This document shows positions 2,128 through 10,968 of a stretch of 64,000 nucleotides of DNA, piece by piece. This DNA is from an uncultured Candidatus Rokubacteria bacterium. Its GTDB lineage: Bacteria; Methylomirabilota; Methylomirabilia; Rokubacteriales; DASRDR01. A program made the position numbers and the translations under genes. The notes under the pieces are model-generated. The model made no database searches. It was not told the DNA's origin and saw nothing but the letters and a program-made list of their open reading frames with translations. Location: the NCBI GenBank assembly GCA_963826115.1, contig CAWGVS010000010.1, forward strand, positions 128,001 through 192,000, given 5' to 3'. How positions within the stretch are numbered: the first letter of the stretch is position 1; the number at the start of each line of letters is the position of its first letter.

Positions 2128-2366
2128 GGGCCGGCGACTCGGCTCGGGCAGGGAGGGGCCGACGGGTCCGACGAGCGCAGGCGAGGCCGCCCGGCGGCGG
2201 TCACGCCGACCGGCCGGCGGTCGCCGCCGTCACGGGCTAGGACCCGAACGGGCCGCATGAAGGCATCGCCGTCCTTCCCTGGCATCCCGATGTCGGGACA
2301 CTAGCACGTCGGGCTGCCGGGAGGCGAGAGGTTGTCGGCGGCAGCCGGTGGGAGCGGGCGTGGGCG

Positions 2367-4473
2367 TCACGGCGCGCCGCTCGGCCGCGGCGCGGTCGAG
2401 CCCGGGCGCGTCGGCTCCGCGGTCAGGACGAGTGCGCGGAGCACCTCGGCCACGCTCCACGCCTGCGCGATGCACCCGCGCGGCGTGAACGGCGCCTCGG
2501 CGTCGAAGATCTCGCTGATACTGCCGACGCACGCCTCGTCGAGGTGCGGCCAGAAGCCGTCGAGCAGGCTGCGGGCCGTCGCCCGGTCCTCGGGGTGGAC
2601 GCGGAGCCAGGCGTCGACGAACGGGCCGATGAGCCAGGCCCAGACCGTGCCCTGGTGGTAGGCCGCGTCGCGCGCTCGGAGGTCGCCGTCATACGTCGCC
2701 TTGTAGTCGGGGTGGCCGGGGGCCAGCGATGCGAAGTCCGACCGGCGTGAGGAGGCGGGTCCGGACCACCGTCAGCACCGGCGGCCACCGCGCCTCGGTC
2801 CAGGACCGGGTGGCGGAGCGAGATGGCGAACAGCTGGTTGGGCCGGCAGGCCGCATCGTCGCCTGCTCGCCGTCGACCACGTCGTAGAGGTAGCCGCCGT
2901 CGGCGTACCAGAAGCGGCGGTTGAACGACGCGCGCGCGTTCGGCGGCCCGGGCCGCCAACGCCGCCGCGGGCTCGTCGCCCTCTTCCTCCCGGAGCCACC
3001 CCTCGAGGAGCCGGAGGGCGTTGTACCAGAGCGCGTTGATCTCGACCGCCTTGCCGCGCCGCGGCGTCACCACCCAGTCGTCGACCTTGGCGTCCATCCA
3101 GGTGAGCTGGTAGCCGTCCGCGCCCTGGCGGAGCAGACCGTCCGCCGGGTCGACGCCGATGCCGAACCGCGTGCCGGCGAGGTGGTGGTCCACGATCGCG
3201 ACCAGGGTCGGCAGGAGGAGCGCGGAGCGTGCCGCGGTCCGCCGTCGCCGCGAGGTAGCGGTCGAGGGCGTGGAAGTACCAGAGGCGTCGCGTCGGCCGT
3301 GTGGTAGAGCCCGTCCCGCGCGCCTTCCGGGAACATGTTGGGGATCAGGCCGTCGCGCACGTAGTGGGCGAACGTGCGCAGGATGTAGCCGGCCTCGACG
3401 TGGCGGCCCGTGAGCAGGGTCAGGCCCTCGAGGCTGATCATCGTGTCGCGTCCCCAGTCGGTGAACCAGTGGTAGCCGGCGATGATCGTGCCGCGCCTCG
3501 TCGCCGGTCGCCGCGCGCGAGCGCGGCGTCCGCCACGCGCCCCGCCGGCGTGATGACGAACTGGTCGGCGGCCAGCACGAGCTCCGCGGCCGGCCCGGTC
3601 CGGGCGAGCGGATGCGCGGCCGCGAGCAGGCGCCGTCGCCGCACGCGCTCGGCGCGCTCGGCGGTCTCGGGATCGAGCGCGTCGCATGGCCTCCCACGAC
3701 TCGGTCGAGGCGACGAGGGTGCTCGCTTCGCTCCGGCTCGAGCGTCACGCGGAAGTACCCGGGGCTCCAGAGGTCACCGGTCGCCTCGTAGCCGCGACTC
3801 TCCTCCACCGGGTACAGGACCTGCTGGATCGTGTGCCCCGACACGCGGAAGGCGGCGGCCGGGCCGTGCATGCGGAACCGGAGCGCGCGGGAGCTCCGGC
3901 GTCGCGAAGAGCTCGTAGCGATCGCCCACGACCGTGAGCCGCGTAGGGCCCGGCCAGGGGATCGCTCACGGGCCGCTCGTGCGGGCGGAAGTGGACCGCC
4001 GGCCGCACGTGGAGATCGAACGGGGCCGGCGCCGGCGATGCAGCCGGTAGCTCACGTGGACGGTGTTCTGGCGGTAGGGCAGCAGCAGGCGCTTCTCGAG
4101 GGCGACCGCGGCCGAGCTCGTACCGCCAGACCGGCAGCCCGCTCTCCAGGCGGAACTCCGCGAGGTCCAGGAGCTCGCGCCGGCTTCGCCGCTCGCCGTC
4201 GACCTCCCGCCCGTCGCGGGAGCGGCGACGCCGGCGTCCGCCAGGTCGAGTCGCTCGTGCAGGTGGCTCAGCATGATCATCCGGCCGAGCGGCGCCGGGA
4301 GCGCGGCGATCAGCAGCCCGTGGTAGCGGCGCGTCATGCGCGCCGGACACCGTTCCCGACGCGTAGCCGCCGAGCCCGTTGGTCACCAGCCACTCGCGCG
4401 TGCGCCGCGCCGCCGGGTCTCGGCGGACGTCACGTGCGGGCCAGGCGGATGCGGCGCGACCAGCTCGGCTCAT
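2367..4473 (-). CDS. Amylo-alpha-1,6-glucosidase (glycogen debranching enzyme); multiple frameshifts
   Basis: Motifs across frames: REWLVTNGLGGYASGT, TRRYHGLLIAAL, IIAGYHWFTDWGRDTMISLEGL, LTWMDAKV...TPRRGKAVEINALWYNAL, CRPNQLFAISL, SISEIFDAEAPFTPRGCIAQAWSVAE. Confidence 0.9.
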
Positions 4474-6389
4474 CCCACACGCCGTCGAAGCACCAGCGCC
4501 GCGCTGGCCCGGGAGGCCCCACGCACGCCGTCGGGATCCACCGCCGGCGTCCCGAGCCGCCGTAGCGGATCGCTTCGCTCGACCAGCGGAGCTGCCAACG
4601 CGCCCCGGCCGGCGGTGCGAGCAGCGGCTCGGCGACCGAGGGCAGCGTGAGGTCACGGCCGAGGTTGACGCAGCAGCAGGCGGTCGCCCGCCTCGGCGCG
4701 TTCCCCGAAGAAGCGCAGCACGAACGCCTCCGGTCCGAGCACGGCGCCGTCGACCCCGCTTCGCCGCTGCGCGCGGAAGACCGGGTCCTCCCGGCGCAGG
4801 CGGAGCAGGTCGCGGTGGAGCGCATAGGCGGCGGCGTGTCGCTCGCGCTCCGCGAAGTCGAGCTTGCAGCGCTCGAACGTCGCCGGTCGCGCCGGGTCGG
4901 GGACCGCCGCCTGCGCCTCGGCGCCGCGCGAGGCTCGGGAACTGGCGCGAGGAACTGGCGCGCGCCCCGCCCGGACCCGCTTCGCCAGCTCGGGCTCGTG
5001 GTCGGCGAAGTAGAGGAACGGGCTGGACGCGGCGAACTCCTGCCCCTGGAACAGCATCGGCGTGCCCGGCGCCGAGCAGCAGCAGCGCCGTCATCGCGCG
5101 GTAGCGCCCGGGGCTGGTCAGCGCGGTCGCCGCGGAGCCCGCCGGGCGGAGTTGGCGACCTGGTCGTGGTTCTGCGATGAAGTGCACGAAGCGACGCGGG
5201 CGCGAGGTCCGAGCGCCGGCGTGCCGCGCCGCTTGCCTCTGCCACGCGTAGCGCTGCCCCTGGTAGAGGTAGCCGCGCTTGACCGCCGAGATGAGCTCCT
5301 GCGGCGTGCCCGCGGTAGTCGCGTGTAGTAGGCCTCGGCGCGGCCGGTCAGCGCGACGATCGCGCGCGTGGTGGAAGTCGTCGTTCCACAGCGCGTCGAG
5401 GCCGTAGCCGCCGCTGCTCGGCGGGCGCGACGAGGCGCGCGTCCTGCGGCTCGTTCTCGGCGACGACGAAGATCGCGCGGCCGCCGGCCGCCGGCCCGCG
5501 CCTGGCGCGCGATCGCGGCCAGGATGTGCTCGCGGCGAGCGCGTCGAAGATCGTCCTGCGTCGCGTCGAGCCGCAGGCCGTCGAGGTGGAACTCGTCGAT
5601 CCAGTAGCCGGCGTTGGCGACGAAGAACTCGCGCACCGGCCCGGCGCCCGCGCCGTCGAAGTTGATCGCCTCGCCCCACTCGGTGCGCGTGACGCGTCGG
5701 TGAAGTAGGCCGGCGCAGAACTGCGCCAGGTAGTTGCCGTCGGGCCCGAGGTGGTTGTAGACGACGTCGAGGATCACGCCGAGGCCGAGCGCGTGGGCGC
5801 GGTCGACGAAGCGCGCGGAAGTCGTCGGGCCGGCCGTAGAGGCGCGTCGGCGCGAACAGATCGACGCCGTCGTAGCCCCAGCCGAAGTCGCCCGGGGAAC
5901 TCGGCGACCGGCATGACCTCGAGCACGGTGATGCCCGAGCGTCGGCCAGCTCCGGCAGCTCGCGGCGCGGCCGCGTCCCAGGTGCCCTCCGCGCGTGAAC
6001 GTGCCGACGTGCATCTCGTAGACGACCTGGCCCTCGCGCCGGACGCCCGGCCAGCGCGCCGTCGGTCCACGCGAAGGCGCCCGGGTCGACGACCTGCGAC
6101 GGGCCGTGCGGCCCCTCCGGCTGGAAGCGCGACGCGGGATCGGGCAGCGGCCCGGCCCGCCGTCGAGCCGGTACGCGTAGGTCGCTCCCGCCCGGACGCC
6201 GGCGACGAGACCGGCGTGGTACCCGTCGGGCTCCGTGGCGAGGGCGACGTGGCGATCGTGGAGCTCGACCTCCACGCTCGTGGCCGCCGGCGCCCACACG
6301 CGGAAATGCGCGCCGCTGCCGTCGGGGACGAGCTCCGCGCCGACCGGCAGGCGGCGCCATGCGGGGGGCGAGGGGGGGCGCGTTCGCAC
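4470..6389 (-). CDS. treZ: Malto-oligosyltrehalose trehalohydrolase (GH13); multiple frameshifts
   Basis: FRVWAP, PDPASRFQPEGPHGPSQVVD, YEMHVGTFT, WGYDGV, LDVVYNHLGPDGNYL, DGLRLDATQ, WNDDFHH, QNHDQVAN, MLFQGQEF; GTG start at 6389 inferred from the promoter position. Confidence 0.9.
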
Positions 6390-6402
6390 AGCGGGACCTC
6401 GG

Positions 6403-6418
6403 GGCAACTTCTATACCA
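6403..6418 (-). promoter_or_regulatory. Putative sigma54 promoter for treZ
   Basis: Minus strand TGGTATAGAAGTTGCC, GG-N10-GC. Confidence 0.65.
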
Positions 6419-6493
6419 GACAACGGCCGCGTGCGCCGCTCCGGTCCGGCCGGAGAACGCCGCCCGCGCTCGAAGACGGTCTCACGGCCCGGG

Positions 6494-6525
6494 CGCCACC
6501 GTGTCGCCGCGACGACACCGTGACG
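6494..6525. promoter_or_regulatory. Putative enhancer (UAS) palindrome, copy 2
   Basis: CGCCACCGTGTCGCCGCGACGACACCGTGACG, lying between divergent sigma54 sites. Confidence 0.65.
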
Positions 6526-6628
6526 TTAGTAGGCCGGGATCTGACACGGCTTCGTCCCGGTCGTGATCGCGCACAAATGCGCGCGTGGAGCGCTCCGCGG
6601 CCCACGCCGCCCGCGCTCCGGATCGCGG

Positions 6629-6644
6629 TGGCACCCGGCTTGCT
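6629..6644 (+). promoter_or_regulatory. Sigma54 promoter for the PRC-BON gene
   Basis: TGGCACCCGGCTTGCT, full match to TGGCAC-N5-TTGCW. Confidence 0.8.
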
Positions 6645-6699
6645 CCGACACCCTGGTATGCGCAATGAGCGGATCGTGGACATTCAGGGAGGCGTGAGC

Positions 6700-7383
6700 A
6701 TGACGACTGAGTTCCGTACCCTCATCACCGTGGCGGCGCTGGCGGCCCTCGTCGGCACGGCCGATGCCGGTTCGGCGCCCGCGCCGAAGACCGTGGCGGC
6801 GACGTCGGCCAAGGCGACGGAGCCCATCAAGGACACGAAGCGGTTCGCCGAGAACGCCGGCCTCTCGCGGGCGAGCTCGGTGATCGGAAGCAGCGTGAAG
6901 GATCTGTCCGGCAAGGACGCCGGAAAGGTCGAAGACCTCCTGCTCGACTACCGCGGACACGTCGGCTACGCCGTGGTGTCGTTCGGCGGGTTCCTGGGCA
7001 TCGGCGACAAGCTGTACGCGGTGCCGTGGGACGCCGTGATCGTGGATCAAGAGAAGCGGACGGTCTACCTCGACGTGAAGAAGGAAGCACTCGAGCACGC
7101 CCCGAGCTTCTCGTCCGACAAGTGGCCCGAGCAGAACGATCGCACGTGGGGCCAGGCAGTCAAGAAGGCCTGGAGCGATGCCTCGATCACCGCTTCGGTC
7201 AAGACGAAGCTGGCGGGCACGGCGCCCGCCACGCTCCTGAAGGTCGACGTCGACACGACCAACGGGATCGTGCAGCTGAACGGCACGGTCGACAGCGACA
7301 AGACGCGCCAGCGCGCGACCGAGCTGGCCCGTCAGGTCGACGGGGTGCGCCGCGTGGTGAACAACCTCAGGGTGCAGAGCTAG
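6700..7383 (+). CDS. Exported PRC-barrel + BON domain protein
   Basis: GGAGG RBS; signal peptide; RASSVIGSSV...GKVEDLLLD...YAVVSFGGFLGIGDKLYAVPW (PRC); DASITASVKTKL...VDVDTTNGIVQLNGTV...VDGVRRVVNNL (BON). Confidence 0.9.
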   Translation: MTTEFRTLITVAALAALVGTADAGSAPAPKTVAATSAKATEPIKDTKRFAENAGLSRASSVIGSSVKDLSGKDAGKVEDLLLDYRGHVGYAVVSFGGFLGIGDKLYAVPWDAVIVDQEKRTVYLDVKKEALEHAPSFSSDKWPEQNDRTWGQAVKKAWSDASITASVKTKLAGTAPATLLKVDVDTTNGIVQLNGTVDSDKTRQRATELARQVDGVRRVVNNLRVQS

Positions 7384-7496
7384 CGCTCGCATCTCGAGGG
7401 GGCTCGTCTCGCGGCCTCGCGGAGCCCGGGAGCGCCGGCTTGGCGCCGCCCGGGCTCCGTCCGTCGACCGCATCACCGAACCGCAAGGAGGGTCTC

Positions 7497-8144
7497 GTGG
7501 CGAAGAACGCCGGTTCCAGCGCGCCGAAAGCCTACCGCCCGCGTGAGTTCGATCTCGCGGGACTTGCAGGCATCTCCGACGCCCAGATCGAGGAGCACCT
7601 CGCGCTCTACGCGGGATACGTGAAGCAGGTGAACGCCTTGAACCAGGGGCTGGCCGAGCTGCGCGGTCGCGGCCAGGCGTCGAGCAAGAGCCCGGAGTTC
7701 GCCGAGCTCACGCGCCGGCTCGGCTTCGAGTACAACGGCATGATCCTGCACGAGTACTACTTCGGCAACCTGCGCGCCGCCGCGGACCCTGCGCCGCCAG
7801 GGCGGTCGGGCCTGTCGGAGGCGCTCGCCGGCTCGTTCGGGTCCGTCGAGCACTGGCGGACGGACTTCCAGGCGATCGGCGGGATGCGAGGGGTTGGCTG
7901 GGCGGTCCTCTTCCAGGATCCGGTCACCGAGCGCCTGACCAATCACTGGATCTCGCTGCACCAGGACGGCGTGCCCGCGGGATTCAAGCCGCTCCTGGTG
8001 ATGGACGTCTGGGAGCACGCGTACATGCGCGACTACAAGGCGACCGAGCGCGACCGGTACATCGAGGCGTTCTTCCGGAACATCGACTGGTCCGCGGTCG
8101 AGACGCGGCTCCAGGACGAGCGCGCCGTCCGGCCCGCGGCCTGA
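7497..8144 (+). CDS. Fe/Mn superoxide dismutase family protein (ChrC-like)
   Basis: AAGGAGG RBS, GTG start; EHLALYAGYV, NGMILHEYYF, RGVGWA, DVWEHAY metal ligands. Confidence 0.9.
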   Translation: MAKNAGSSAPKAYRPREFDLAGLAGISDAQIEEHLALYAGYVKQVNALNQGLAELRGRGQASSKSPEFAELTRRLGFEYNGMILHEYYFGNLRAAADPAPPGRSGLSEALAGSFGSVEHWRTDFQAIGGMRGVGWAVLFQDPVTERLTNHWISLHQDGVPAGFKPLLVMDVWEHAYMRDYKATERDRYIEAFFRNIDWSAVETRLQDERAVRPAA

Positions 8145-8169
8145 GCGGTCGTCATGCTGTCCGGCGTCC

Positions 8170-8201
8170 CGTCACGCTGTCGTCGCGACGACACCGTGGC
8201 G
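8170..8201. promoter_or_regulatory. Putative enhancer (UAS) palindrome, copy 3
   Basis: CGTCACGCTGTCGTCGCGACGACACCGTGGCG; central 16 bp is a perfect palindrome; extra sub-site CGTCA-TGC-TGTCC at 8150. Confidence 0.65.
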
Positions 8202-8265
8202 AGGACGACCGAGAGGAACACCCGGCCTGGCGGGCGTTTCAGCGTCACGGGCCACGGGATCGACC

Positions 8266-8281
8266 CGGCACGCGACTTGCC
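8266..8281 (+). promoter_or_regulatory. Putative sigma54 promoter for the small-protein cluster
   Basis: CGGCACGCGACTTGCC, GG-N10-GC. Confidence 0.7.
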
Positions 8282-8355
8282 CTGACTAACGTCGGGGGCC
8301 GCGTGACGCGGCCGCAGCTAGAAACGGGCCGCGATCGCGCGGCGCGGAGGGCAGC

Positions 8356-8544
8356 ATGCGAGGCGCACGGGGCTGGATCGGAATCGCACTGGGGCTCGGC
8401 GTGCTTCTCGCCTGATGCGACCAGGGCCCGGCCCAGAAGGCGGGCGAGAAGATCGACCGGGCTCTCGACCGGCTGAGTGGCAAGGGGCCGCTCGAGAAGG
8501 CCGGCGAGCGGATCGACAAGGCGGTCGAGGAGCTCAAGAAGTAA
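8356..8544 (+). pseudogene. Small lipoprotein interrupted by an in-frame TGA at 8413 in the lipobox
   Basis: GGAGG RBS; MRGARGWIGIALGLGVLLA*CDQGPAQKAGEKIDRALDRLSGKGPLEKAGERIDKAVEELKK; repeated GPxxKAGExID. Confidence 0.75.
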
Positions 8545-8619
8545 GGCGGCCGGGCCGGGCGCGCGTCCGGGACACAGCGGACCCGGGCAACGAGCGAACC
8601 GGCGAAGGAGGACATGACG

Positions 8620-8790
8620 ATGCTGTCGATGGCCCTGACGTTCCTGATCGTGGGGCTCGTGGCCGGGCTCCTCGGGCTCTACGGCGTCGCCGCCGTGGCG
8701 ACGCAGATCGCGTGGGTGCTGTTCCTGGTGGGCGTGGTGCTGCTCGTGGTGCACGTGGCCCGGGCGCGACGGCTCCCGCCTGTTGTGTGA
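8620..8790 (+). CDS. DUF1328/UPF0391 small membrane protein (YtjA-like)
   Basis: AAGGAGG RBS; MLSMALTFLIVGLVAGLLGLYGVAAVATQIAWVLFLVGVVLLVVHV. Confidence 0.85.
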   Translation: MLSMALTFLIVGLVAGLLGLYGVAAVATQIAWVLFLVGVVLLVVHVARARRLPPVV

Positions 8791-8804
8791 AGGGGGAACG
8801 AACC

Positions 8805-8888
8805 ATGGGCGCTCTGCGGAGCCTGATCACGGCGATCGGCATCTGGCTCGCGTTCGTCCTGGTGTTCACCTCGATCGTCGGCGCCTAG
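8805..8888 (+). CDS. 27-aa single-transmembrane microprotein
   Basis: AGGGGG RBS-like; MGALRSLITAIGIWLAFVLVFTSIVGA; GC3-rich codons; 14 nt after DUF1328. Confidence 0.55.
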   Translation: MGALRSLITAIGIWLAFVLVFTSIVGA

Positions 8889-8996
8889 GGGCGTGTCAGC
8901 GCCCAGGCGCGCGGTGAGCCGGCGCACCGAGTCGCCGGCGGCAACGCGCGGCCACCCCGCGGTGACCGCGATTCACGCAGTCGAGGAGGTGACGAC

Positions 8997-9086
8997 GTGG
9001 CTCATCAGTACCGCTGTGAGAAGTGCGGACACGTGTCGGACCGGCCGGGCAGCTGCTGCGGTCAGCCGATGAAGGAAATCTCCTAG
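8997..9086 (+). CDS. 29-aa four-Cys metal-binding microprotein (desulforedoxin-like)
   Basis: GAGGAGGT RBS, GTG start; MAHQYRCEKCGHVSDRPGSCCGQPMKEIS; followed by a terminator. Confidence 0.75.
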   Translation: MAHQYRCEKCGHVSDRPGSCCGQPMKEIS

Positions 9087-9106
9087 CCCACTCGCGGGCC
9101 TACTCG

Positions 9107-9146
9107 GGGAGCGGGACGGCGAGAGCCGCCCCGCTCTCTCTTTTTC
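9107..9146 (+). terminator. Rho-independent terminator
   Basis: GGGAGCGGGACGGC-GAGA-GCCGCCCCGCTCTC stem with GNRA loop, then TCTTTTT. Confidence 0.75.
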
Positions 9147-9173
9147 GCCTCGCCGCGCGCCCCACCCGGCGCT

Positions 9174-9202
9174 TTGACAGCGGCGCTCCCGTGGGGCATC
9201 GT
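9174..9202 (+). promoter_or_regulatory. Sigma70-like promoter for the LLM gene
   Basis: TTGACA-N17-CATCGT, 10 nt before the ATG; no SD. Confidence 0.5.
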
Positions 9203-9212
9203 GCCCAGGGTC

Positions 9213-10259
9213 ATGCACGTCGGGATCTTCGTCGAGGAGCGGCGCCGCGGCGCCAGGGAGGCCGTCGCCTTCCGGGACGCCGTCGAGCTCGCCGAGGCGG
9301 CGGAGGCCGGGGGCCTCGACGGCGTGTGGCTGGGCGAGATCCACTTCACCCCGACCCGCTCCGTCCAGTCGGCGCCGATGGCGCTGGCGAGCTACCTGGC
9401 CGCCCGCACCCGCCGGGTGCGCATCGGCACGGCCGTGACGGTGCTGCCGCTCGTCCACCCGCTGCGCATCGCGGAGGAAGCGGCGACCGTGGACCAGCTG
9501 AGCGAGGGCCGCTTCGACCTCGGGATCGGGCGGAGCGGCGCCGCCTCGACCTACGACGCGCTCGGAATCCCGTACGGGGAGAGCCAGGCGCGCTTCGAGG
9601 AGGCGCTGGCGATCATCCGCGAGGCGTGGAAGGGCGAGCCCTTCTCCTACGAGGGCCGGTTCCACCGGATCCGGAACACCGTGGTCACGCCGCGGCCCCA
9701 CCAGGTGCCGCACCCGCCGATCCGGATGGCGGCCAACTCGCCCGAGACCTTCCCCTGGGTCGGCCGGGCCGGCCTGTCACTGTTCGCGGGCCTGCGCGAC
9801 CTCGGCATCCCGGAGATGGGCGAGCACCTCGCGGCGTATCGCGCGGCGTGGCGCGGCGCCGGGCACGCGGGGGCCGGCGACGTCTGCCTCCGCATCCCGC
9901 TTTACGCCGCGCCAACGGAGGCAGAGGCCCGCGAGGAGCCGCGCGAGAACATGACGTACTTCTTCAATCGCCACACGGAGCTCGCGCGGGCGCGCCTGGG
10001 CCGGGCGGGCGCCGGCCCCGTGGAGCGCGGCCAGGCTCGCGTGGCCGACCTGGAGGACCTCTCGTACGACCGGATCCTCGAGACCCGCGCGGCGTTCGGG
10101 ACGGGGGCGAGTCTCGTCGAGCGCCTCCGGCGCCTCCGCGACGAGCTCGGGCTCGACGGCATCATCGCCGAGCTGAACCCGGGCGGCCTCCTCTCGCTCC
10201 CGCAGATGCGCCGCACGCTCGACATCCTCGCCCGCGAGGTCGTCCCCGCGCTCCGCTGA
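9213..10259 (+). CDS. LLM-class flavin-dependent oxidoreductase (luciferase-like monooxygenase)
   Basis: GLDGVWLGEIHF, LAARTRRVRIGTAVTVLPLVHPLRIAEEAATVDQLSEGRFDLGIGR. Confidence 0.92.
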   Translation: MHVGIFVEERRRGAREAVAFRDAVELAEAAEAGGLDGVWLGEIHFTPTRSVQSAPMALASYLAARTRRVRIGTAVTVLPLVHPLRIAEEAATVDQLSEGRFDLGIGRSGAASTYDALGIPYGESQARFEEALAIIREAWKGEPFSYEGRFHRIRNTVVTPRPHQVPHPPIRMAANSPETFPWVGRAGLSLFAGLRDLGIPEMGEHLAAYRAAWRGAGHAGAGDVCLRIPLYAAPTEAEAREEPRENMTYFFNRHTELARARLGRAGAGPVERGQARVADLEDLSYDRILETRAAFGTGASLVERLRRLRDELGLDGIIAELNPGGLLSLPQMRRTLDILAREVVPALR

Positions 10260-10332
10260 CGCGACATCGCGGCGTGCTAAGCTGGCTGCGGATCGAGCGC
10301 CACCCTCTCCGAGGCCAGCCGAGGAAGAGCCC

Positions 10333-10968
10333 ATGGACGAGCTGCCGTTTCGCGACGTCGTCACGTCCGAGGACGCGCTCCGAGCGATGGTCGGCCGCCC
10401 GAGCGAGCTGGCGATCCGCAAGGAGATCTCGCACCTCGACGCCCACTGCCGAGCCTTCATCGCGCGCTCGCCCTTCGTCCTGATCGCCACCGCGGGGGGG
10501 ACCGGGCGGGCCGACGTGTCGCCGAAGGGCGATCCCCCGGGGTTCGTCCAGGTCCTCGACGAGCACCGGCTCGTCATCCCGGACCGGCCGGGCAACAAGC
10601 GGCTCGACGGCATGCGGAATCTCCTGGAGAACCCCCACGTCGGACTCCTGTTTCTCATCCCGGGCCTGGAGGAGACCCTCCGGGTCAACGGGCGCGCGTG
10701 GATCATCCGCGACGAGGAGATCCTGGCGCGGTGCAGCGTGCAGGGGAAGCGGCCCACGCTGGGCATCGGCGTGTACGCGGAGGAGTGCTTCATCCACTGC
10801 GCCAAGGCCTTCAAGCGCTCGGGCCTGTGGCAGCCGGACCGCTGGCCGGACCGCGCGGGTCTCGCGTCGCCGTCGGAGATGCTGGTCGACCAGGCCCGGC
10901 CGACGGACATGACCGTGCCCCAGATGGACCGGCTGCTCCAGGAGTCCTACGCGAAGAACCTCTACTGA
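10333..10968 (+). CDS. Pyridoxamine 5'-phosphate oxidase-family FMN-binding protein (MSMEG_1061-like)
   Basis: DVSPKGDPPGFV, IPDRPGNKRLD, LFLIPG, ETLRVNG, HCAKAFKRSGLW. Confidence 0.9.
   Translation: MDELPFRDVVTSEDALRAMVGRPSELAIRKEISHLDAHCRAFIARSPFVLIATAGGTGRADVSPKGDPPGFVQVLDEHRLVIPDRPGNKRLDGMRNLLENPHVGLLFLIPGLEETLRVNGRAWIIRDEEILARCSVQGKRPTLGIGVYAEECFIHCAKAFKRSGLWQPDRWPDRAGLASPSEMLVDQARPTDMTVPQMDRLLQESYAKNLY

Follow-up and report, generated by a model that had tools for sequence, protein, structure and literature searches.

What does a bacterial gene of only 29 codons do when its product carries four cysteines arranged almost as in desulforedoxin (Dx), and is it a gene at all? The question is raised by the open reading frame (ORF) at 8997..9086, on the + strand, of a 64-kb stretch of DNA (here called the window) from an uncultured soil bacterium of the Candidatus Rokubacteria (assembly GCA_963826115.1, contig CAWGVS010000010.1, positions 128,001 to 192,000; G+C content 71.8%). 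An earlier sequence-only reading of this DNA had described a standalone metal-binding microprotein with its own ribosome-binding site and terminator. We find that 8997–9086 is a genuine protein-coding gene under purifying selection. Its product is a homologue of Dx, judged by sequence profile and predicted fold, both of which match Dx best, with six residues missing from the hairpin between the two cysteine knuckles.

The ORF, the ribosome-binding site and the hairpin with a GNRA-type loop all lie where they had been placed (table 1), and the translation agrees with the peptide given earlier, the start codon being read as V or M. The open stretch of the frame contains no further start codon upstream of the GTG, and the last base of the GGAGG in GAGGAGGTG is 7 nt ahead of it. 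The genome itself and 40 relatives were searched in six frames. Full-length matches at E < 1e-10 were obtained in nine of the 15 genomes of the genus (own genome counted), and 15 of the 17 genomes of the sister family f2 match at E ≤ 0.0022, or 14 of 16 without the unpublished genome G038. The nine genus orthologues are 75–100% identical and start at the same codon (ATG in six, GTG in three), which is preceded by a GGAGG-type site in all nine loci; a GGAGG-like site at an equal distance from the start is present in most of the 26 loci compared. The variable columns among the nine orthologues are distributed over codon positions 1, 2 and 3 as 10, 4 and 24. The mean dN is 0.085 and the mean dS 1.285 (ratio 0.066), computed from 30 of the 36 orthologue pairs, the other six having been dropped because dS was saturated or undefined.

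A leader peptide is lacking in the window protein, C7, C10, C20 and C21 are its only cysteines, and no second copy of the Dx-like motif is present in the 64 kb. The sequence-only reading had recognized the Dx signature YxCxxCG...CCGxxM with an unusually short spacer, an identification borne out by what follows. The SORGOdb paper gives the canonical Dx motif as CXXCX15CC (PMC3116461); the window protein, with CxxC-x9-CC, does not have the x15 spacing. The whole protein scores 23.6 bits with the Pfam model PF06397, whose cut-off is 23 (E 3.9e-5), and at E ≤ 1 the model matches all 23 members of the family alignment A1 (best E 2.2e-5). Because the spacing rule fails and the Pfam cut-off is barely touched, we regard the x9 protein as a variant of the Dx family rather than a member of it.

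Comparison of the family profile by hhalign with the canonical Dx–superoxide reductase (SOR) protein of genome G044 gives a probability of 94.25% (E 1.1e-7, 25 columns), and the alignment contains a single gap, of 6 residues, in the hairpin between the knuckles. In a profile search of the PDB, only 1dfx (desulfoferrodoxin, Dfx; E 0.036) and 1cfw (Dx; E 0.085) cover both knuckles; the zinc fingers ranked higher cover the first knuckle only. An AlphaFold2 model of a natural 30-residue orthologue, based on 42 sequences, has a mean pLDDT of 86.4, and its six best Foldseek matches are all Dx or Dfx structures (1dxg, 2ji2_A, 1dfx, 2ji1, 2ji2_B and 1vzg; probability 0.98–1.00, TMq 0.74–0.79). The E-values of these six, 0.12–0.39, are as expected, since the query has only 30 residues. 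For a predicted complex of two copies of the 30-residue orthologue with two Fe, the score was 0.03, where the mark is 0.42; the controls not having been folded, this score carries no weight for or against a Dx-like dimer. In the genomes of Edwardsbacteria and Firestonebacteria with mini-genes, x15 Dx-SOR genes are present as well, adjoining rubrerythrin. Since an x9 mini-protein occurs together with an x15 Dx-SOR in both G042 and G044, the two are distinct paralogous lines, and we conclude that the x9 proteins represent a paralogous line of the Dx domain with a shortened loop.

By their sequences, the x9 mini-desulforedoxins form a widespread, unnamed family of proteins of 25–38 residues, of which tandem two-module forms also exist. 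Among GTDB relatives, 97 were confirmed and 80 loci were kept for analysis. According to the record titles, 57 of the 80 come from Rokubacteria, Rokuibacteriota or Methylomirabilota. The other 23 are titled Edwardsbacteria, Zixibacteria, Ignavibacteria, Firestonebacteria, UBP2, Ratteibacteria, Saccharibacteria, Bathyarchaeota, Thermodesulfobacteriota, Binatia, a 'beta proteobacterium' metagenome-assembled genome (MAG), or 'uncultured bacterium'. There are 74 loci with an ORF of 25–38 codons containing C-x2-C-x9-C-C-x3-M, and the x9 spacing is present in every one of them. In the remaining six, the Met is replaced (two loci), His stands for the first vicinal Cys (one), or the second knuckle is CxxC (three: L070, L071 and L077, which are better seen as of rubredoxin or zinc-ribbon type). 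Seven positions (C7, C10, C20, C21, G22, P24 and M25) are invariant in the 42 aligned members, and the four cysteines are also invariant in the 23-member alignment; the sequence-only reading had proposed looking for homologues that keep all four, and such homologues are thus found.

When 1.84 billion representative proteins were searched with the profile, 152 clusters were obtained at E ≤ 1e-3, five of them at E ≤ 1e-10; among the best 150 of the 152 clusters, x9 modules make up 145 of the 153 CxxC...CC modules. The ESM Atlas, searched with the 30-residue orthologue, gave best values of 0.85–0.86, under the lead level of 0.9. No published x9 Dx family was found in the literature, subscription journals and the SORGOdb PDF supplement lying outside the scope of the search. 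Genes of this type are probably missing from most annotations, since they are at or below the usual calling limit of 30 codons and no NCBIfam model reaches its cut-off on the window protein.

Several variants could be read from the sequences of the representative matches and other relatives. They include tandem two-module proteins of 51–72 residues, CxxC-x9-HC forms and His-variant tandems, proteins with signal or lipoprotein leaders (for example P0068, P0070, P0133 and P0147), a protein fused to an HMA heavy-metal domain (P0107; PF00403, E 8e-18) and one with a partial HMA domain (P0027). The calculated isoelectric point (pI) is 7.7–10.4 in all 42 aligned members, and some forms have Lys-rich tails. 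Additional cysteines are present in an N-terminal MCxCCGCG (P0058, P0082, P0084, P0100 and P0131) or a C-terminal CxCGSG...CC (P0086, P0105, P0011 and P0120); some of these Cys-rich extensions resemble the SEC-C metal-binding motif. The genome of the window itself has a second member, a 27-aa ORF on contig 6 (about 298,190–298,275, locus L108). It belongs to the subfamily 'MAGF.C..C..TAPVQK.CCGRPMKR' and is flanked by genes for a GAF-HisKA-HATPase-REC kinase and a 2-hydroxyacid dehydrogenase. A further weak match in this genome (L107) was rejected as a family member, being a degenerate remnant without the first knuckle.

The gene neighbourhoods of the family were compared by tblastn over 84 unique loci, and 72 neighbour ORFs, picked by eye from 141 candidates at 17 exemplar loci, were scanned against Pfam. 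A superoxide dismutase (SOD) gene is upstream in 10 loci, namely the genus group and a paralogue in G008 that lies between a canonical SOD gene and a ferritin-like gene. An FMN reductase gene is downstream in four loci and a DUF1858 gene in five. At one locus, in a Firestonebacteria MAG, a divergent flavodiiron protein gene and a thioredoxin gene are nearby. At another, in a Ratteibacteria MAG, the mini-gene is followed after 2 nt by the start of a 1Fe-type SOR gene and then by MsrAB. The module is present in three of the nine genomes of the phylum of this Ratteibacteria MAG and has SOR alongside in one, so the SOR link is a single case.

In the window, the gene order is PRC-BON protein, Fe/Mn-SOD, small lipoprotein, DUF1328 protein, a 27-codon ORF, the mini-desulforedoxin and the hairpin. 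The nearby SOD gene noticed earlier is real and ends about 850 nt upstream of the mini-gene. Its N-terminal domain is divergent (Sod_Fe_N E 0.0058, under the cut-off), the C-terminal domain is clear, and the four metal ligands, judged by eye, are all kept. In each of the eight other genus loci, a SOD orthologue 78–87% identical to it lies upstream of the mini-gene. The order SOD–DUF1328–mini-desulforedoxin is common to all nine genus loci; the gene further downstream varies.

Table 1. Features of the window around the mini-desulforedoxin gene.
Feature	Position	Strand	Remarks
PRC-BON protein gene	6235–7383		
Fe/Mn superoxide dismutase gene, 215 aa, first of the conserved cluster	7497..8144	+	Sod_Fe_C 3e-23
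Small lipoprotein gene with in-frame TGA at 8413–8415	8356..8544	+	Intact orthologue L002:725–904
DUF1328 small membrane protein gene	8614..8790	+	Pfam PF07043 E 1.1e-10; in 9/9 genus loci
Broken DUF1344/CusF-like gene	8805..8996	+	8805–8888, 27-aa signal peptide; 8889–8996, degenerate remnant
Shine–Dalgarno site GAGGAGGTG	8983..8991	+	Read from sequence
Mini-desulforedoxin CDS, 29 codons, GTG start	8997..9086	+	Predicted metal ligands C7, C10, C20, C21
G+C-rich hairpin, GAGA loop, then T-run	9106..9146	+	Probable intrinsic terminator of the cluster

The 27-codon ORF is the beginning of a broken gene. Intact orthologues, coding for secreted DUF1344 proteins of 105 aa, are present in L002 (1170–1487) and L006 and score 26.0 and 23.7 bits with PF07076 (cut-off 23.1); with the CusF model, the DUF1344 protein scores 23.6 bits, under the cut-off of 27. 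In the window, a stop codon cuts the gene off behind the signal peptide, and about 126 nt of its length are missing; the gene is damaged in L003 and L004 and absent in L005 and L008. Real decay and assembly error are indistinguishable here because MAGs may hold long-read errors. In the alignment of the nine genus loci, the TGA stop codon of the DUF1344 gene in the relatives falls inside or just before the Shine–Dalgarno site of the mini-gene. The description of the gene as standalone, with its own ribosome-binding site and terminator, therefore fits the two signals as they appear in the window; the gene is not fully standalone, since the corresponding Shine–Dalgarno site of the orthologues contains the stop codon of the gene before it.

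The hairpin probably ends the transcript of the cluster. It is a bulged stem of 14 pairs closed by a GAGA tetraloop (9106–9139), with TCTTTTT directly after it, and a terminator scan of 8300–9700 gave this one site against 0.3 ± 0.7 in shuffled sequences. The fold energy of 9080–9160 is ordinary for DNA so rich in G+C (z −1.0; 34 of 200 shuffles are as stable). A strong hairpin is found within about 25 nt after the stop codon in all nine genus orthologues, with a clear T-run in the window copy only. No sigma-70-like promoter was found in 8300–9700. Contigs 90–99% identical to the region are present in four RNA-library runs from one soil study. One of 720 nt spans 8379–9096 and covers the lipoprotein, DUF1328 and mini-desulforedoxin genes, and several shorter ones cover the ORF. 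Contig cover from the four runs is absent from 9142–9400; contigs cannot show transcript ends, and this gap is not evidence of termination.

Some other features of the region are worth recording. The TGA at 8413–8415 in the lipoprotein gene falls between the signal peptide (...VLLA) and the lipobox Cys, where the L002 orthologue has ...LTGC, and the contigs from all four RNA-library runs have G at 8413 (GGA, Gly). Because these contigs and the orthologue lack it, the TGA is either a nonsense change peculiar to the strain or an error of assembly. A hydrophobic ORF of 24 codons (MPLILWLLGVPL...; L002:599–673) lies between the SOD and lipoprotein genes in seven of the nine genus loci, having the same place in L003, L004, L005, L006, L008 and L009; it was not seen in the + frames of 8101–8420 in the window. 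On the − strand, at about 2300–6420 of the window, matches to GDE_N, GDE_C and a GlgX-like protein (CBM_48, alpha-amylase and DUF3459) are spread over overlapping ORFs in different frames. This suggests frameshifts in glycogen-debranching and GlgX-like genes, arising from pseudogenes or from long-read assembly errors.

As for the metal and the function, we tentatively prefer, with somewhat less than even confidence, iron in a Dx-like site. C7, C10, C20 and C21 would hold one metal ion in a distorted tetrahedral site, most likely iron by homology, and this very small protein would serve either one-electron redox chemistry or the handling of iron. It may be made together with a stress cluster comprising the Fe/Mn-SOD, the small lipoprotein, the DUF1328 membrane protein and the DUF1344 periplasmic protein, the transcript of which would stop at the hairpin. 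This reading is ranked first because of the homology and because oxidative-stress neighbours recur in unrelated phyla.

A number of observations weigh against it. The match to PF06397 is borderline and split over the two knuckles, neither stretch passing alone; a six-frame scan of the genome with this model did not list the ORF at E ≤ 1, and the NCBIfam model TIGR00319 gives 17.2 bits against a cut-off of 36.05. No orthologue was found in six of the 15 genus genomes (completeness 68–97%). Counted as independent events, the associations with SOD number about two, the synteny shared by the genus and the paralogue, and an enzyme of the Fe/Mn-SOD type works without an electron donor. Across the family, the most frequent neighbour is no redox enzyme but a thiolase, encoded immediately upstream and on the same strand in 30 of the 84 unique loci. 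The genome itself, which is 99% complete, has neither SOR (PF01880) nor rubredoxin (PF00301), so the classic partners of Dx are missing from it. The basic pI of all 42 aligned members is unlike that of Dx, an acidic protein, and the lipoprotein forms, the HMA fusion in P0107 and the His-for-Cys variants point to the handling of soft metals. The RNA-library contigs, which come from one study, are no proof of a transcript, let alone a single one, and may reflect DNA carry-over.

The thiolase neighbour and the basic charge would suit a structural Cys4–Zn(II) knuckle, in which the protein would be a basic adaptor or regulatory subunit of 27–30 residues for a protein or nucleic acid, without a redox role. 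In most Rokubacteria the candidate partner would be the thiolase, whose stop codon abuts the start of the mini-gene. The thiolase-adjacent loci belong mainly to the 'MAGFRC...' and 'MASYRC...' subfamilies of Rokubacteria; the thiolase alignment ends 3–8 nt before the mini-gene start in several loci, and in L106 the thiolase extends over 1847–2992 and the mini-gene over 2992–3078, with similar arrangements in L061, L016, L085, L097, L098 and others. A stop codon that overlaps or abuts the next start in this way suggests translational coupling. The Lys-rich tails of some forms and the heterogeneity of the gene contexts are in keeping with such a knuckle, as is the first knuckle, which alone resembles that of many zinc ribbons (RNA polymerase subunit P, TFIIS); zinc-ribbon Pfam families match eight of the 23 members, weakly. 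Yet the vicinal CC and the conserved G-x-P-M are hallmarks of Dx and not of zinc ribbons, the subfamily of the window does not adjoin thiolase, and redox-enzyme neighbours recur across distant phyla. On balance we think a zinc knuckle unlikely, though it is the strongest competitor of the iron site. A buffer or chaperone for soft metals (Cu(I), Zn or Cd), that is, a minimal metallothionein-like or CopZ-like binder that sequesters thiophilic metals or passes them on, appears a little less probable again; it corresponds to the metallochaperone suggested in the sequence-only reading. It would account for the full and partial HMA domains of P0107 and P0027 and for the exported forms, Cys-rich tails and CxxC-x9-HC variants. 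The overlap of a secreted DUF1344 gene, with its sub-threshold CusF score, with the Shine–Dalgarno site in the genus is also consistent with it, as is the weak likeness of the model to a domain of LpCopA (8ovl; Foldseek rank 22, TMq 0.71, E 2.9). Against this, the cluster of the window contains no copper or heavy-metal resistance genes, its protein has neither leader peptide nor extra cysteines, and the mini-gene persists although DUF1344 is broken in the window and absent from two of the nine genus loci. The sequence-only reading had also seen a likeness to the heavy-metal-binding motif YxCPMH...DxPGxCPxCGM. This likeness is not supported at the sequence level: neither CPMH nor CPxCGM is present in the window sequence, and no heavy-metal-binding-domain family is among the Pfam matches of the 23 members at E ≤ 1.

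The ORF is very short, its hairpin is statistically ordinary and NCBIfam offers no model at cut-off, all of which would be expected if it were not a gene but a chance ORF, the precursor of a ribosomally synthesized and post-translationally modified peptide (RiPP), or a leader peptide or attenuator controlling the luciferase-like monooxygenase gene downstream. We consider this highly improbable in view of the conservation of the amino acids across phyla, with invariant cysteines, and the dN/dS ratio of the orthologues; Rfam has no family match in 7000–10500 at E ≤ 1. The leader-peptide and RiPP-precursor readings in particular were rejected: the downstream gene varies among orthologues, the hairpin lies in between, and there is no RiPP maturase among the 72 neighbour ORFs scanned. 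A bolder proposal may be put forward as a speculation that we regard as doubtful. The x9 mini-desulforedoxins would then be an unrecognized widespread family with the smallest natural rubredoxin-type metal centres (25–30 residues), and in aerobic soil Rokubacteria, which lack SOR and rubredoxin, the dedicated function of the SOD-linked subfamily would be to help Fe/Mn-SOD. Such a helper might deliver or buffer the metal of SOD, or serve as a redox-sensing partner linking the cluster's small membrane proteins with superoxide stress.

The textbook example of a minimal Fe(Cys)4 protein is desulforedoxin, whose 36 residues are a popular scaffold in the design of metal sites; to our knowledge, no smaller iron-binding protein has been described. 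A natural family that is shorter by six residues and common in uncultured phyla of soil and groundwater would provide a smaller design scaffold. Its occurrence in a genome without SOR or rubredoxin would extend the roles of the Dx knuckle beyond anaerobic superoxide reduction, and the repeated adjacencies offer concrete candidate partners: SOD, SOR, flavodiiron protein, FMN reductase, ferritin and thiolase.

Among known systems, the heavy-metal-binding domain of the P1B-ATPase LpCopA (8OVL) resembles the x9 protein in size and in the fold of the knuckle (rmsd 1.7), with an E-value that is not significant. The loop ...D-x-P-G-x-C of the window protein resembles that of the heavy-metal-binding domain, whose ligand motifs (CPMH...CPxC, as given in the sequence-only reading) it does not share. 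Rubredoxin (PF00301) is likewise a small Cys4 knuckle protein with one metal ion, as predicted for the mini-desulforedoxin. It differs in having two CxxC knuckles within about 45–55 residues, whereas the second knuckle of the mini-desulforedoxin is a vicinal CC, and PF00301 is absent from the 13 families matched by the 23 members at E ≤ 1. Dx of Desulfovibrio gigas (PDB 1DXG, 1CFW) is a stand-alone mini-protein as well, and has the same [YF]-[KR]-C-x-x-C-G and C-C-G-x-x-M with the vicinal Cys pair; in Foldseek, the model matches 1DXG best (probability 1.00, TMq 0.74). The two differ in length and spacing: Dx has 36 residues, with the x15 motif cited above, and the proteins of the x9 family have 25–30. 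The N-terminal Dx domain (centre I) of desulfoferrodoxin, or 2Fe-SOR (1DFX, 2JI1 and 1VZG; PF06397), takes Foldseek ranks 2–6 (TMq 0.74–0.79, rmsd about 2.0). Unlike this domain, the mini-desulforedoxin is free-standing, and in the Ratteibacteria MAG, where only 2 nt separate the mini-gene from the gene for 1Fe-type SOR, the pair resembles a split Dx-SOR.

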